Shown piece by piece: positions 54,341-64,000 of a stretch of 64,000 bases of DNA. Positions within the stretch are counted from its first letter, which is position 1. Each line of letters starts with the position of its first letter. A model generated the notes under the pieces. The model ran no database searches. It worked only from the letters and a program-made list of their open reading frames with translations, and was not told the DNA's origin. Made by a program: the position numbers and the translations under genes. The DNA is from Pecten maximus (lineage: Eukaryota): contig NC_047022.1 of assembly GCF_902652985.1 (NCBI RefSeq), positions 17,484,001 through 17,548,000 on the forward strand, given 5' to 3'.

Positions 54341-56945
54341 CAATCAATTCAATTCAATTATTTTATTAGAGTGTCAAACAACTTACAACATATAAAATAC
54401 ATCATAAAATATTTCTCTTTCAAAGTAAGATATGTCCAGCCATTTATGACTTATTTAGACACTATAAAACAAAATAATAGTCTGAGATATTGCATGCTAA
54501 AAGTTAATAAGGTAAAGTTATCCCAAGCTATTAAAAATGGTACAGTACGTAGCCACGTTATGTTACAAGAATAAAAAGCTACGAAAAGTTGCTTCTTCTC
54601 CTCCACATAGCATAAAGTTGATTGGCGAGGAGATTTGGGGGAGATTTATCTAAAAGATATTTAAACTGATTAAAACTGTCCATACTATTAAAATCAACAT
54701 ATTTGTTAGCATCAACTAAAAGAGGCCAGCGTAAATCATCATAAAAATTACATCGTATTAAAAAATGAACTTCGTCTTCAACCTCATTTGATAAACAATA
54801 TTTACAGATTCTTTGTTTTATGGGTAAAATCGGCTTGGCATGCCGTCCCTTTTCAATTTCTAGGGAAAGTGACCCACATCTGAAGTTGCACAGCATACCT
54901 CTTCTCTCTTTAAATTTGACAAATTTCACATAATCACTTGTTGTAGGCTCATACTTATAGGTTCTATATAGACGTAATTTATTACCATTAACATTTCCAT
55001 CATCATTCCACAATAAATTTTGCCAACTGTCAGCATCAATATTTTGTAATTTTTCTTTGATATTTTTCAATTTCCAGTTTAATGATTTTTGTGCTGAAAT
55101 AATATCCACTAAATTAGACTTTACTATTAGATTGTGAACCCGCGAATCCCAAGAATTACGGAGAGACTTGGACCATTTATGAATTTTACTCAATATCCTA
55201 TCACTTTCCGTATTTTGTATTCTTAAATACAATCTTAAAACGTTTATAGTCTGTTTCGTGGTAGTTGACGTCCAACCCATGTCGCCCCTTGTGGCCAAGT
55301 TACTGGAAAACTTCGATGCTCCAAGAAAATATCGACAGGCCTTGTTTTGTAGTAATGTTTCTTCTCTGTAGGAGTTTATACCCCAGAGTCCACTCGCGAA
55401 GTAAGTTATAGGCTCCACTAAAGACATGTACAGTTTGGTATAAACCGAATAAGTCATACCTCCCGCGTGGGTGAACTTTGAGTAAAGGGCATAAAGGGCC
55501 CTACTCGCAGACTTGCACAAATCTCGTACAGCGAGATGTAGATCGATATGTTCATGAAACCACAATCCTAAGTATTTATACTTAGAACAAATGTCGATAT
55601 CAGAGTCGCCACACGTAAATTTAGATTGTGTTAAAGTCAAAGAAGGGTTACGGAAATGAACAACGTTAGTTTTGTCCTTGTTTATATACAGTTTCCATTG
55701 TTCACACCATTCTGCTAGTTTATCAAGCATATTTTGCATAGAGTTTTCATCCGGCGATATGATAGCTATATCATCCGCATACAGAAGGATGGATATCATT
55801 GTGTCTTCTACTTGAACACCACAGTTCATAGCGTTTATATCTTTCGCCAAGTCGTTTACGTAGATAGAGAAAAGTGTTGGTGAGGCTTTACAGCCTTGTT
55901 TTAATCCAGTCGAGACCCCGAATGGGTCAGTTAACTTTCCATTTACCCGAACCCTACTAGTGTTTTGTACGTAAAGTGATTGTATCGCTCGTAAAAATAA
56001 CCCGTCTATTCCGAGATGCCTCAACTTTAACCATAAAAGATCTCTATTAACGCTGTCAAATGCTTTTTTCATGTCCACAAAGCAGACGAACGTGGATTGT
56101 TTCCGTATTTTACGATTATTTAGAATGGTAAAAAGTGCATATTGGTGGTCAAGACAACTGCGATTTTTCCTGAATCCGTTTTGTTCATCGACTAGGATAT
56201 TGTTAACTTCTAACCAGCTATATAAGCGCTGATTAAGTATGTCTGCATAAATTTTGCACGGTATAGATATAAGAGATATCCCTCTATAGCTGTGTGGGTC
56301 CAATGGGTCTTTTCCCGCCTTTAATATAGGGGTTACAATACTTTCACCCCACATATCCGGAACTATGCCCGATCGGAATGAGTTACATATAATCCTGTGA
56401 AGTATGTCTATACAGGCTGGATTCCTCAGCACTGCACTTTGGATATCGTCTGTACCTGCCGCTTTGTTCAGTTTAGCTCGATACACGGCGTCCTCTACTT
56501 CTTTTATAGCTATGGAGTTGTTTAAAATGGTAATGTCTGTATCTAGCACAGGGCCCAGTGAATGTTTGAGATGATCTGTTGAAAATGTTGCATCGGAGTC
56601 AGACGGCACGTTGTATAACTCTTTGTAAGCATCGTGCCATACTCTTAAGACTTGCTCGTCGTCAGTAGTTATGTTACCATCCTTGTCTATCACTTTATCT
56701 GGTATCGATTTTTGGCGATCATTAGAGATACCCAATTGTCCTATTATCTTCCAGAAATCTCTGGGTGCAGTTTGCTAAGCTCTAATAGTTCTTGCTGTTT
56801 CGCTATTTGAAAGCGGCGTTTTTCCCGCCTTAGTGCCTGGTCAAAACTTTTTCGGTCATTAATATACATGATGTATATTGCACGAAGTTGTTCCCCTAAA
56901 CGTTTTGATCTCGTCCGATTTTCGAGCCATTTACGTTCACTATCA
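54341..56945 (-). mobile_element. Young non-LTR retrotransposon (RTE-X-like, clade tentative) with a 718-aa open RT / C-terminal zinc-knuckle ORF (56735-54579); 5' part missing
   Basis: SYRGISL, DEQNGFR, FVDMKKAFDSV, GLKQG, LLYADD, YKYLG and RICKYC..EDEVHFLIRC motifs, with an AATAAA+(TTGAA)n tail. One frameshift at ~56762. Confidence 0.9.
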
Positions 56946-57175
56946 TACGATGGCCGATATCGGACGGGCAAAATAGTGTTACTAGTAGTACGTTTTTGTC
57001 AACGAAAAATGTACGTACATATTGTGTGTCAAATTTATCTACTGCTATAGTAGTAGATAAATTTGTACACAAAAAGTGTACGTACAAATCCTGTGTCAAA
57101 AACCTGTTACTAGTAACACATTTTTGACACGAAATTTGTACGTACATATTTTATGTACAAATTTATCTACTACTT
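56946..57175. mobile_element. Probable left end of a DNA transposon with palindromic subterminal repeats
   Basis: A ~70-bp unit (GTTACTAGTA..TGTACGTACA..AAATTTATCTACT) occurs three times in alternating orientation, immediately upstream of the transposase promoter. Confidence 0.6.
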
Positions 57176-57250
57176 CCAAATATCAATTAACATTCCTTTT
57201 ATTCTTGATTGATTACCATGCGGCCGTATGCTGACTTTGCCTGATAAGGT

Positions 57251-57258
57251 TATAAAAG
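57251..57258 (+). promoter_or_regulatory. TATA box of the transposase gene
   Basis: TATAAAAG lies ~70 bp upstream of the ATG at 57320. Confidence 0.5.
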
Positions 57259-57319
57259 CCAGACCCAATCGGCGCGAATTTAAAGTATGCCGTTAAAGCC
57301 AGATTATCCAGCCGGCGTA

Positions 57320-60300
57320 ATGGAAGAAGGTAGGTGAATACTGCTTATATGAAATGTGTTTATAGACCATAAGTATTACATCAAATTCTCGTGTGATTTA
57401 ATTTTTTGATTTGCAGTTATGGAGCTGATGCTAAAATATGCCCGTCAAAACATGACATACAAGGAAATATCCTTGCTATTAGCCAAGGAGACAAATTTAC
57501 AACTCGGGTAAGCTTGAAAAATATCTCAATTACTTCATACTTGTTGATTAGCAAATCTTAATCAAACATAACAGTATATGGAAATTGTTATTTGTACCGT
57601 GAAAGTTAGGTACCTAATTTCAGTGTCGAAAGTTAGCTGTAGTGTATGCACCGATGCATTATATATACCGAATACGAAGTTATAACGGTCAGATAAACAT
57701 TTCATACACGGTAAAAATAATAAAACACACCCTGCTGTAACAGGAAATTGGGTCTTACATTGGACAAAACAACAAATCATGACAGGCGAGGTTGATATGT
57801 AAATGTGACAAGTTGTATGAATACTTGATACTTTTGTAAATGTTTGGTACGCCTATGTAAATTTATGAAAATTGAATTAGAGAACTGATTCCAAATATCA
57901 AGAATTATTAAGTGTAGATTAATATCGTCTTTATATTATAAAGTTCGTTTTGATAATGAAATGACTTTGAAAATGTTGTTCTAGTCCTGATGCAATTAGA
58001 AAAAGACTCCGACGTACAGGAACGCAAAGTCGAAAGGGAAACACTGCTCACACTGTTATTGAAGTGAAGAACATTATTCAAGTAGGTCTACTGCATATCA
58101 TACTTTTGGCAGGTATAATTCTAAAGAAAAACCTGGAGAAGACCAAGTCATTGTAATACAATATTGATTTTGTTATAAGTACTTCTGTATAATATAATCT
58201 GTATGTACGAAGCTATGATAGCAATTAAATATTAAGCACATGAGTTTTTTTGTGTGACAATTTTAGGAAGAATAATTCATTGTTTATTTTTATATTATCA
58301 CAAATAGAAACGTGCTGATGACATGTATTCAAACTTAAGGGGAAATCAAAATTAATTTTTTTCAGGCTTTGTTACCTGATTTGCCAAGCACTATCGGTTA
58401 CAGGCAAATGACCTGCATATTACGACAAAAACAAGTAAACATCCCAAGGTAACTATAAACATAAAGATAGAGAGGGAATGCAAGCGCTGTTCCTTAAAAA
58501 CAGAATTACCTAACTACATAATACAGATGTGGTATATAAATTTTGTTATGGTGTTCTGTTTTACATTATTGAGTAAACAAGAAAAAGATATGTATTTACC
58601 GCAAAATAGTGGCAAATAAATTGTAGTAAACTTTTTGACATCTTAACTTCACCAAATACAGGCCCAGTATAAGTATACTTATTATTGATCAGTATAAGAC
58701 TGAGACATGCATTCTTCGTTCAAGTTAAGACAAATAACATTTATATTGATCGTTGTAATAGGGATACAGTCATGAAGATAATGAGAGAACTTGATCCCAT
58801 TGGGGTGGATATTCGAAGAAGGCGTCGTATAAATCGAAGAATATACCGAACAATGGGTCCGAATCATGTGTGGCACGTGGACGGGTATGTTTATCCTATT
58901 GATATGCATGCTGAATGATAAATACGTTGATAAAGATAAATTTTAGATTTGTATTTCTTTGCGAATGTAGTTAAGCAAATTTGCAGTCAATTAAGAATTT
59001 ACTTTATTTCAGATACGATAAGCTGAAACCATACGGATTTCCCATACATGGGTGCATTGATGGGTAAATATCTTTTTATATTGTGTATTAGACTTACCAA
59101 AGTACTCATTAAGCGTGAGAATGCACGTCATGACGGGATGACTACGTAATTATTAATTTGATTAAATTATCATCAATCCGTAAATATGTTATGTCTATGT
59201 CTTTTGCCATCTTTAAAACGGGTCAAAGGAAATTTGCCCAATCCATATTAGAAATTGTACTCAATAGGGCGTGTTTTTAATGGGCTCTTAATCGGTCATA
59301 CTATCTAAGACTGCTATATATAATTGTCGCCACCACACGACGTATCAAAAGACTGATTATCAAGGCTTAATTCTATAACCATTAGAATTCACGGGATGCA
59401 AAACTCATTTTCAAAGTCTTCTCAGAAAAGGTCTTTCAGATATTTATGAAATTTTACTTCGTCCATGTTATCTCTGTTTTCTATCTAAAACAAACGCCAC
59501 AGTGTACACCATGTACACGTACATGCTTGTTGCCAAGGTATTGGCGGGAACTGCCTATACTCAAACAATGCGTCTAGCTACAATACCTGATTATATTGAT
59601 AATGTATAAGCGATTAATTAACAAGTTATAAGGTACAAGTCAATTACTAGGGCTCTATCTGAGAGTAAGATAACGAGGCTGGACACGTCAATTTAATTAA
59701 GTGTTAGTCCGATAACACTATGACACTAAGGTATTGCTGTCAATACACTCGATAGAATACCATATTCAATCCAAAACAATATACTCGGCAAGTCTCGTGC
59801 TGACCAGCAAAAATCTTTCAGTTTTGCAACTCGCAATGTACTATTCATGAATACCTGCACACGCAATTTACGGACACACACAACTTAAGCAGTTGAAATA
59901 AATATAACTTATAGTATTACTGTGCTTTCGATGTAGGTTTTCCAGGAAAATACTCTGGCTAAAGGTTGGTCCAACAAACAACGATCCGGAAGTGATTGCA
60001 TTCAATTTTGCACAATGCGTTGACGAATTAAAAGGTAACTTGTAAATTAGCTCTAGATAAAGCATGATTATTTTTTATTCAGAACCTTTATTTCCGAGAG
60101 TCTGAGGTACATTCAACATCTAAGGATATGTTTTCAAAAATGATATATCTTAAAACTCCAATTCATAGCCGATGAAATGCATTTATTCGTATGCGGGATA
60201 ATGTATACATTGGTAGAGGTGTCCATGCAATTGGTTACTGTAAATAGTAGTATTACTTATTTTATTGATATCTACTATATCATTAAGCTTTACCTGCTCC

Positions 60301-63300
60301 GCCCAATAACAATACATATATTGGAATAGTATTGACGAATATCAAGTATTTTGTAAACGGAATATTAATTAATTTTTCAAAGTTGAATTTTCGAAATTGG
60401 TTAATGAACTATTTTAATGGTCCTCTTTACTTATATATATCAACATTTGATACCGATTATGATGTGACATTTGTTTAAGATTTTCATCTAAGGTTCAAAG
60501 CATCATTGATGAATTGTACAAGGGCGAAACAATTGTGTGACGTAGTTTTATTTATTGAAATAATATCTTCCTATATTGCTTGGAATTCGGTGTTGTAAAG
60601 TTTTAGAAAACTACATAATAGGTTTTTGTCTTGGAATATACATATGCATTATAATGTACATGTATATATGTGTATTAAGAGCAGGAGAAATGCAGTATAA
60701 GTACCCATCTATGCTAGTAAAGATACAAGTTAAAGTTCTCCTTTTTGAATCATAAATAGGTTTTACACTCACCAGAACCTTTGATGTTACCAGAATGTAC
60801 GAGTTTTTTTTTCTTTAATCATGCATTTGATAAAATTATGGACATTTATAATCTCGTAAGAATGCTGTCAGTAACAATGATACTTGTTTATATCTACGTG
60901 TACATTAGAATTGTAAGTATCCTCAAAGCATTCATACCTTATTCTAAATAAAAACAACGCATTTTCAGGTTGTCCTATGGTTCTCCAGGCTGACCCCGGG
61001 ACAGAAAGTGGCATTATGGGTTCTCTTCAGTGCTTGTTCAGACATACGTCCAATGCTTCGTTTTCCGGCATACGCAGTTACCGTGTCGTAAGATCCATCT
61101 TCAATCAGGTACATCGCATACAAATATACAATTACCCGGACACAAGAGTTATTTCCTATGTAGGCATTCTTGTTTGCATTTGTGTATTTATTTGGATAGA
61201 CCTAGTCGCGTGCTTGCAAGGTTTCCGATGAAACTTCCAAAGTAGTCCATATAAGATGATCTTTACCCATCTGTACATGTGTGCCGTCTGCTACAAGGCG
61301 TCTTATTCTTTTTGTATATATATATGAGATGACTCACTTCCGTAGATGGCTAACCCCCATAGATGGTCCACTCCCGTAGATGGCCTACTGCAGTAGATGA
61401 CCCACACCTGTAGATGGCTCAATCCAGTAGATGACCCACTCCCGTTGATAGAACACTCTCATAGATGGCCTACTGCAGTAGATGGCTCACTCCCATAGAT
61501 GGCCCACTCCTGCAGATGGCCGACTCCCGTAGATGACACACCCTTATAGATGGCCCTCACCTGTCGATGGCCCACTCCAGTAGATTGCCTACTCTCCATA
61601 GATGACCCACTCCTGCAGATTGCCCACCTTTATAGATCGCCAATTCACTCCAGTAGATTACCCACTCCTGTAGATGGCCAACCCCTAAAGATTGCCAATT
61701 CCCGTTGATGCCAAGGCCTGTAGATGGCCCATTGCTATAGATGGCTCATTCTTATATATAGTAAACAGAATGGGGCAAATTTCAGGAGTGGACTATCTAC
61801 AGTAGTGAATCCAAACGTGCCATCTACAGATAATGCTTTATAGAAAAAAAGTTTTATAACTTCAAAATTGTATTTATTTGAACAAGATAACTTGTAATAT
61901 ACTTTGTGCAATAAATGTGTATTATCCAAAATGATAGCAGGTAGAGAAAACATTTGCAGTCATAATTTTTTTTTTTTTTTTTTTTTGCGTAGTCTAATTA
62001 AATATGTTGGGGAAAAACTAGTGAAGGTAGATGGATTTGTAAATCTTTGATAGTGTTTCATAGTGTTTCACTCTCCGCTATCGCTTTTAAGACTTATCTT
62101 TTATAAATTGCTGCTGCCAAACTATAGACTGTATTGGGATTAATTGGTACTCTGATACAATGTGATATGACAAGCTGCGCTCACCTCACTGACCTTTTTT
62201 TTTTTACAGAAGTTCTCTAAACTAACGCATGCGTACAGACACTTTTCTCCATGGCAAAATCCATAGCTCGCTGATATTATACTGCCTGGGTCTCGGGACG
62301 CTCATGTAACAACTAAGCATATTTTGATGAATTTTGTACGTATGAAACATTTCATATGTATATATCCTAAATATTTGGGTTGCCTACCTCGTTTATTCCA
62401 TTATGATAATATGCCTGCTCATCTCCGTTGGACTTATAATTTTTTTGATAAACTATTTGTTAATTAAATCAATCGATGAATTGCCAATGATGTATTTATT
62501 TAATTATGTATAATTATTTGGTTACTTTAAAAGTATTCTTCCATATTCTAATGGTCATTAAAAGTTAATGAATGAGAAGTCATTGGTTAAGGATTGGTTA
62601 TTGAAAAATAATTGATTATGAATCGCCTAGTGATTTTAAAATGGATAGAATATAAAACCATCACCCGACAGTCAGAACTAGCAACTGCCTTACGTGGGCT
62701 TAGAACACTTAATGAAGTAATTATCCTTACCAAGATTTAATGTTTTATTTTGCAATATTTACACTTGCGTTGATAGCTCAATGTTAACATTTTTCGATAT
62801 TTACGCATGGTGATTAGATTTGCACCAGAATAAAAGATATAACAAGTTATTTGAAAGTTACTGGCACTTCGGAAATTAGATCATGAAATGCAACATATAA
62901 AGTTGTAAATGAGTATCCGTTCTTAATGAAAATTGAATTAAAAGTAAGCAAATACAAAGACGGTCTTGGTGGAAGTTCGACGTCTGCATGACGTTGACAC
63001 CATCTTGTATCGACGTCTTGTCACCACTACTGTAAATTTTAGCGGCGCGATGTTCATCGTGTATCTTTTTTTCGAATATGTAGTATACAATGTATATCTT
63101 TTAAATTACATTCGTACTTCAGTACTGTCAAAAACATAAGATTACGGCTAACAAAATAAAAATAAAATGTTCAAAAATATCAAATGAAATATTTCTTCTT
63201 TGAACAATTTGGTTTACCGACGTTGTCAATGACGTCGCTCTTCCACGATGCGTATGAGGGATTTATTCTTAATAATGCATTGAATGTCGTGGCTACAAAA

Positions 63301-64000
63301 TGTAGCTTCATTGAAGTGTATTGACATCGGGGTAAGTGCAAAGTATACTTGGTGCACGTTAAGCAATATGTACTTATTCATCCAATGTCAATACACTTCG
63401 ATATAGCTACAGAAAATGAATAATAATCCTTAAATAATCAGATTATCCGACCAACATCTGGACGATGACACATGATTGATGTACCTTGCATGTGTCGATT
63501 TTTGCGCCCTGCATAATTTCCTTTTCCAGAACAGACTTATGTAAACCTTCACTTGTTTTATCTTAGCGCATCGAAGCCTGGTGGAGTGTAATGAGGCGGC
63601 AACAGTGCGAATGGTGGATTTCTTTCTTCAAAGATCTTGTTGAATTTGGTGGACTACACAAAGGAACTATTAACGAAATGTAGGACAAGATATTATAAGT
63701 ATAAAGATATCAAGATCAATCGTTATTACGTATAGTCATATCAAGAACACAGAAGATATTTATATTCTTCAAAACAGAACATACACATGAGAAAATTTTC
63801 ATCCTATGTAATGTGAACAAGTAAATGCCAACACTTAGATATCAGTTAATTTGTTTGACATTTGGTACCTTGCATGGGCTTTATTGATATGGTGTGATCC
63901 GCGTCTGATATTGGTATCTGAGGAAAACCAGCCGTTCATATAAATGACCAAAACATTACTCATATTTGATGTATGATTTCAGGCACTGCATACGATATTG
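57320..64000 (+). CDS. Multi-exon DDE integrase-core transposase (IS3EU-like), 3'-partial. Exons 57320-57329, 57417-57507, 57985-58081, 58366-58448, 58762-58884, 59013-59063, 59937-60034, 60969-61108, 63567-63679, 63983->64000
   Basis: All introns are GT-AG with compatible phases and there are no stops: MEEVMELMLKYARQNMTYKEISLLL..IRKRLRR..IGYRQMT..RDTVMKIMRELDPIGV..RRRINRRIY..GPNHVWHVDGYDKLKPYGFPIHGCIDGFSRKILWL..NNDP..GCPMVLQADPGTE..SIFNQRIEAWWS..WWISFFKDL..MHCIRY. Confidence 0.88.
61327..61751. repeat. 17-bp minisatellite (~25 degenerate copies) in transposase intron 8
   Basis: Unit TAGATGGCCCACTCCTG. Confidence 0.9.

Follow-up and report, generated by a model that had tools for sequence, protein, structure and literature searches.

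The window analyzed in this study, a stretch of 64,000 nucleotides from Pecten maximus (G000:C8:17484001-17548000), contains near its end a gene of 11 exons that in all likelihood encodes the transposase of a two-gene IS3EU/GingerRoot transposon, which is complete, was inserted recently and has a HECT ligase as its second product. This copy is probably impaired, its family is likely moving and the introns of the transposase gene are probably ancestral. The element is of a known kind (IS3EU/GingerRoot), and its HECT pairing and intron pattern were not found in print.

Element boundaries and insertion site

The whole element comprises 19,098 bp (G000:C8:17540946-17560043) and terminates in TA..TA, with TACGA..TCGTA as the full ends. 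A right TIR, a TSD and a second downstream gene, for which the preliminary description had proposed to search, were all found; both the HECT gene and the TIR on the right are located beyond the window. Features defining the element and its target are listed below; positions without a contig name refer to the window.

54579..56945, minus strand: 3' part of a LINE reverse-transcriptase frame interrupted by the element (target site, outside the element)
56940..56945, no strand: left TSD copy CTATCA, 6 bp
56946..64000, plus strand: part of the element within the window; about 12 kb more lie beyond the window end
56946..57236, plus strand: left TIR, 291 bp, starting with TACGA and containing palindromes
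57251-57257, plus strand: TATAAAA motif, putative TATA-like sequence just inside the left TIR
G000:C8:17559753-17560043, beyond the window: right TIR, 98.3% identity to the left TIR
G000:C8:17560044-17560049, beyond the window: right TSD copy CTATCA

The palindromic end structure noticed earlier upstream of the gene is real and consists of a 126-bp palindrome at 57049-57174 (folding z -10), which forms the inner part of the left TIR and occurs again at the right end. The TATA box claimed for this region corresponds to the TATAAAA motif, which is present and represents a putative TATA-like sequence. The interrupted target is presumably a LINE, judging from its reverse-transcriptase motifs. In all five LINE copies examined, CTATCA was present once and the flanks were continuous, representing empty sites. 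The 19-kb element is a recent insertion into a young LINE.

Structure and splicing of the transposase gene

The transposase gene consists of 11 exons of 10-200 nt, all introns (87-2,458 nt) are of the GT-AG type, and the joined frame encodes 385 aa without internal stop, in agreement with the preliminary description of an uninterrupted frame composed of at least ten small exons. Ten exons start in 57320-64000, and exon 10 crosses the window end.

57320..57329, plus strand: exon 1; 3' junction in 1/4 runs
57417..57507, plus strand: exon 2; RNA contig junctions
57985..58081, plus strand: exon 3; RNA contig junctions
58366..58448, plus strand: exon 4 with the HTH_21-like region; RNA contig junctions, Pfam
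58762..58884, plus strand: exon 5 with the first catalytic Asp, D134; RNA contigs, skipped in one X2 contig
59013..59063, plus strand: exon 6; RNA contig junctions
59937..60034, plus strand: exon 7; RNA contig junctions
60969..61108, plus strand: exon 8 with the second catalytic Asp, D193, and with Ser198 and Ala214; RNA contigs, alignment
62210..62335, plus strand: alternatively spliced cassette within intron 8, containing a stop codon in frame; joints in X1 and X3, sequence
63567..63679, plus strand: exon 9 with the catalytic Glu, E234; RNA contig junctions, alignment
63983..64000, plus strand: first 18 of 152 nt of exon 10, which continues past the window end
C8:17548655-17548854, plus strand: exon 11 with stop, beyond the window

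All 10 junctions were recovered in RNA contigs from four runs of four studies; X1 is the one run for which an RNA source is documented. Eight introns were supported by 4/4 runs, intron 5 by 3/4 and intron 1 by 1/4; this evidence consists of contigs that are not assignable to one particular element copy. The gene is already annotated as encoding an uncharacterized Pecten maximus protein, since its product is identical to the NCBI model P0001 minus 11 N-terminal residues, the start of the model being located 33 nt earlier and in frame.

Furthermore, an in-frame skip of exon 5 was observed in one contig of run X2. As deduced from the reading frame, inclusion of the stop-bearing cassette would truncate the transposase before the catalytic Glu, and cassette and exon-5 skip would each yield an inactive enzyme. 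Intron 8 also harbors a 17-bp minisatellite with 24 copies (window 61327-61745).

Transposase protein and assignment to IS3EU

The 385-aa transposase matched Pfam rva_4 (E 2e-27), and 2,255 relatives were identified at E <=1e-10 among 3,387 candidates. The catalytic triad D134/D193/E234, described as complete beforehand, was kept in 116, 118 and 118 of 118 homologues, respectively. Regarding the HTH-like region reported for the N terminus, an HTH_21 match was obtained (E 7.5e-5), but it remained under the Pfam cut-off. The structural model (pLDDT 88.6) matches the folds of TnsB, IstA, MuA and retroviral integrases. A PDB sequence search with the transposase returned no solved relative (one match, E 0.95), and no transposase relatives were found in a scan of viral contigs.

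Assignment to the IS3EU lineage is based on Pfam rva_4 and on a by-eye comparison of the core with Repbase rows in the supplement of PMC10045372, in which the core corresponds almost letter for letter to IS3EU-1_HM; core motifs are nearly identical to those of IS3EU-1_HM, -1_DR and -4_CGi. According to PMC10045372, IS3EU/GingerRoot elements are characterized by TA..TA termini, a 6-bp TSD, lack of an HHCC motif and a first catalytic Asp that is separated from the N terminus by 100-300 residues, and as summarized in PMC8232023 (citing Kojima 2019) and PMC10853768, IS3EU encodes two proteins. The element described here possesses a DDE core, TA..TA termini, a 6-bp TSD, TIRs and two proteins; its first catalytic Asp is residue 134, and an HHCC motif is absent on inspection. 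The IS3EU label, originally assigned from motifs, is supported by rva_4, core likeness, termini and TSD.

Second gene

A second gene in convergent orientation was predicted downstream from database proteins:

C8:17549494-17559627, minus strand: second gene, approximately 12 coding exons

Its predicted domains are a TDP-43-N-like domain, two further folded domains and a HECT ligase, the TDP-43-N-like domain being found in P0121 and P0123 and the HECT domain in P0122 and P0123. For the copy on C13 (P0122), the Pfam HECT match reached 30.1 bits vs. a cut-off of 23.9, and HECT structures ranked top in a fold search with the model of this ligase. A Cys near the C terminus is presumably the catalytic residue. 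Two differences from the C13 copy were noted in the ligase gene of the window copy: a T-run near C8:17551099, ahead of the HECT domain, lacks a single base, and an earlier exon near C8:17556265 lacks 9 nt; as assembled, its HECT reading frame is not intact. The one-base frameshift in the T-run possibly reflects an error in the assembly.

A tandem array with a unit of about 97 bp is located in one of the introns of the second gene (L012 about 2885-3470). Moreover, G000:C7 harbors near 41.626-41.632 Mb (L120-L121) a 6.6-kb element that shares the TACGATGGCC ends and is flanked by the TSD GTTGAG; the 5' portion of the second gene is retained in it, and no transposase match was obtained for it.

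Age and distribution of the introns

Four other elements showing 50-60% identity to the window element carry GT or AG at the matching sites of introns 3 or 4 to 10, and their intron lengths differ from those of the window element. A more distant family, represented by L149, comprises complete elements of 13.2-13.5 kb with TATGG ends, 6-bp TSDs and a transposase 37% identical to that of the window. Seven of its eight introns align exactly with introns of the window element, while the position of the eighth coincides with a gap in the alignment, its phase being the same; even if only 100 sites were available, the probability of such agreement by chance would be 6e-8. Intron 5 is absent from this family. 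The gene had been described as unusually intron-dense, which is correct relative to most relatives fetched; however, a minimum of four other families in the genome share these introns, so that intron density represents a lineage trait.

Other families in the Pecten maximus genome have one intron at a different place, or none. Families with 10, 8-9, 1 and 0 introns coexist side by side in one genome, so that the loss of introns from a DNA transposon becomes accessible to testing. In metagenome loci, an intron-sized gap was absent from 75 of 80, a set that favors intron-less genes because it was ranked by best segment; four loci represent complete elements that possess TIRs and a 6-bp TSD. Two metagenome loci (L102 and L112) have an intron in the codon of intron 5, one base earlier, which was not counted as shared and could reflect either parallel gain or intron sliding.

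Since eight introns are common to a family with only 37% identity and most relatives are intron-less, old introns that were repeatedly lost are favored, and on comparative grounds this appears to be the somewhat better-founded history. The alternative, to which clearly less but still appreciable probability is assigned, is that introns were gained once in one IS3EU branch to which L149 belongs, its position in the trees being wrong. Bacterial relatives are established to be free of spliceosomal introns, and every intron-rich family seen originates from one genome, both in line with a single gain. On the other hand, a branch with 98-99% support joins the window clade with intron-less elements and excludes L149 in all three trees (76, 33 and 21 rows, the 76-row tree leaving out 40 of 80 metagenome rows). 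A single intron-rich clade was rejected by the AU test under LG+G4 (p 0.001; 33 rows), although the group tested was named after the first tree had been seen, whereas it was not rejected under a mixture model (p 0.11; 21 rows), the value being p = 0.12 with two more rows allowed in.

Based on ancestral introns, a broader scenario may be put forward tentatively, with the expectation that it is rather wrong than right in its entirety. IS3EU in animals would have begun gene-like, with at least 8-9 transposase introns, and several branches would have lost all of them at once, and likewise the introns of the ligase gene, via reverse-transcribed mRNA, though the element has no RNA step of its own. 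If true, the intron-rich branch, surviving in bivalves as 17-20-kb two-gene elements, would still be jumping in scallop populations, trapping host exons by splicing them onto its transposase and tuning the latter by alternative splicing and its own ubiquitin ligase. No paper on IS3EU introns was found in the literature searched. For CACTA transposases, intron number varies by family, mostly explained by loss via reverse-transcribed mRNA, as stated in PMC4158355. CACTA and the window element thus have in common that the intron number of a DNA-transposon gene varies between families, whereas the former is an unrelated superfamily of plants with one to six exons and the latter is IS3-like, of animal origin and equipped with up to 11.

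An intron-less IS3EU-type family (L177-L187 and further rows) was also encountered, in which 10 rows contain a stop-free 452-aa frame and scores are near-equal. It is probably the youngest such family in the Pecten maximus genome; no TIR was found for three copies within 15 kb. In the intron-rich family with TATGG ends (L149, L154, L197, L200), the partner gene is broken by LINE insertions; its fragments gave no Pfam match and presumably bear a faint likeness to alpha-kinases. Furthermore, five tandem 1.7-kb repeats are located on G000:C18 near 6.2 Mb (L208 and L147), in each of which coding exon 1 of a transposase from the L149 family is present.

Copies, alleles and signs of mobility

Three large copies of the element and at least 33 further loci with the same left ends were detected. 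The copy on C10 can be followed for 2,010 nt, at 99.65% identity, up to a gap in the assembly; its likely right end is located on C2188, with a TGTTTC flank matching that of C10. The C13 copy differs from the window copy by 0.5-1.3% substitutions, lacks the first 863 nt and is further damaged by a mutation of the exon-5 donor and by a stop codon at position 354 of the frame; its left end was not found within 15.7 kb upstream. Left ends of the further loci are 90-97% identical, and their number is a lower bound because 40 of 111 candidates were scored. The eight small copies examined, all 1.18-1.36 kb in size, represent non-autonomous elements with the same ends as the 19-kb element, seven of them with a perfect 6-bp TSD and one with 4 bp. 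Within intron 8 of the C13 copy (L018), a 3.9-kb insertion with a flanking duplication of about 17 bp was noticed.

At position 198, Asn was found in 118/118 homologues and Ser in the window copy; at position 214, Asp was found in 103/109 homologues and Ala in the window copy. Contigs of X1, X3 and X6 carry the Asn198/Asp214 alleles, hence these transcripts originate from other copies or alleles. Contigs of X2 are identical to the window copy at these sites, and since they cover position 198 without difference, the Ser198 allele seems to be expressed. In view of Ser198, Ala214 and the frameshifted second gene, the window copy is probably impaired, the effect of Ser198 being deduced from conservation alone. 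It would be fully autonomous and active if Ser198 were tolerated and the frameshift either were an assembly error or affected a dispensable ligase. This reading is unlikely: the open frame, intact splice sites throughout, nearly identical TIRs, the apparent expression of its allele in X2 and the location of the frameshift in a T-run are in its favor, but position 198 is invariant, position 214 nearly so, and the 9-nt deletion is a separate lesion of the ligase gene. Accordingly, the potential activity proposed in the preliminary description applies to the family and is doubtful for the window copy.

In one contig of X1, transposase exon 2 is joined to a foreign stretch of 28 bases. The genome contains a single match to this stretch, located where an exon of a host gene with an NRF domain ends (G000:C16:12746150-12746237; L212:1441-1528). 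This exon possesses a GT donor and the same phase as the exon 2 joint, and the fusion is in frame. No IS3EU element was found near the host exon in the 80 kb of reference fetched around it, and a non-reference insertion trapping a host transcript is therefore likely. As the simplest reading of the chimera, such an insertion is suggested by one contig from one run. Young copies, empty sites and this chimeric contig make it likely that the family still moves. If polymorphic, as is likely, this insertion would demonstrate current activity of the family in a shellfish of commercial importance to fisheries.

Recurrence of the HECT pairing and comparison with known systems

The same convergent gene pair is present in two complete sister elements of 16.8 kb (TSD GATCAT) and 20.5 kb (TSD GTAACC). 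In the metagenome, an opposite-strand Pfam HECT was located downstream in 14 of the 36 loci, among 80, that provide at least 1.5 kb of downstream DNA (91 of 144 ORFs scanned), and in one locus a UBX domain adjoins HECT. The ligase is not universal in IS3EU, since some families of the Pecten maximus genome gave no HECT match. Chance acquisition of a host gene playing no part in transposition is very improbable: GingerRoot elements often carry host gene fragments, as noted in PMC6839031, and the HECT gene of the window copy is broken in the assembly, yet orientation and position of HECT recur in families only 50-60% identical and on the opposite strand in the metagenome loci, and the closest Argopecten ligase and transposase are consistent with one element.

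The IS3EU superfamily is widespread, its descriptions are found mainly in Repbase, and it is referred to as poorly characterized in PMC8232023. Compared to described IS3EU/GingerRoot elements, the window element stands out by 10 transposase introns and a HECT second gene. No paper naming a HECT partner for IS3EU was found; Repbase entries and Kojima 2019, outside the search, may describe such a partner and also transposase introns. GingerRoot elements of clubmoss measure 3.9-12.9 kb with TIRs of 100-150 bp, as reported in PMC10045372 and PMC6839031, vs. 19.1 kb and 291 bp here. Rust-fungal IS3EU families carry alpha-kinase and TET/JBP genes according to PMC12730594. They share the 6-bp TSD and a partner gene opposite the transposase with the window element and differ in their ends (TAYGG..CCRTA vs. 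TACGA..TCGTA) and partner (alpha-kinase vs. HECT). Membership in the rust-fungal TET+ group was rejected on account of differing ends and partner, and membership in IS481EU (TSD of about 4, 15 or 25 bp) on account of the TSD lengths of the small copies.

TLEWI genes of bivalves, described in 10.1101/656579 as intron-bearing, TIR-less, Tc1-like and proposed to be domesticated, likewise are transposase genes with spliceosomal introns in pteriomorph bivalves; however, they are of the DD36E type without TIRs, whereas the window element has full ends and recent copies and does not occupy a single fixed locus. Domestication into a single-copy host gene, an option of the preliminary description to which many introns, expression and the TLEWI precedent would lend themselves, is refuted by complete TIRs and TSD, empty sites in the young LINE, three large copies and many small derivatives, the same observations that establish a mobile origin.

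Possible transposition mechanism

The N-terminal helical region would recognize the 291-bp TIRs by binding to their internal repeats, while the integrase-like core would join the TA ends to target DNA with cuts 6 bp apart. The donor may be excised or, alternatively, be copied with a circle as intermediate; bacterial IS3 elements follow the latter route. Intact copies could supply transposase in trans to the approximately 1.2-kb elements, and less active enzyme would be produced from transcripts in which the stop-bearing cassette is included or exon 5 is skipped. As the weakest step, the ligase might tag the transposase for turnover or for dismantling of the finished complex, and a host silencing protein would be about as likely a target. 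The element offers material for a first mechanistic study, since its transposase and ends are defined, small substrates occur naturally and a ubiquitin ligase of its own is encoded.

Further observations in the window

Outside the element, a long degenerate (TCA)n tract (window 2128-2670) and a 155-bp tandem repeat with 5.5 copies (window 2844-3692) were noted. Moreover, a segment of several kilobases occurs in window 14300-43450 as three diverged copies, which lie about 8 and 15 kb apart and are probably tandem gene duplicates.
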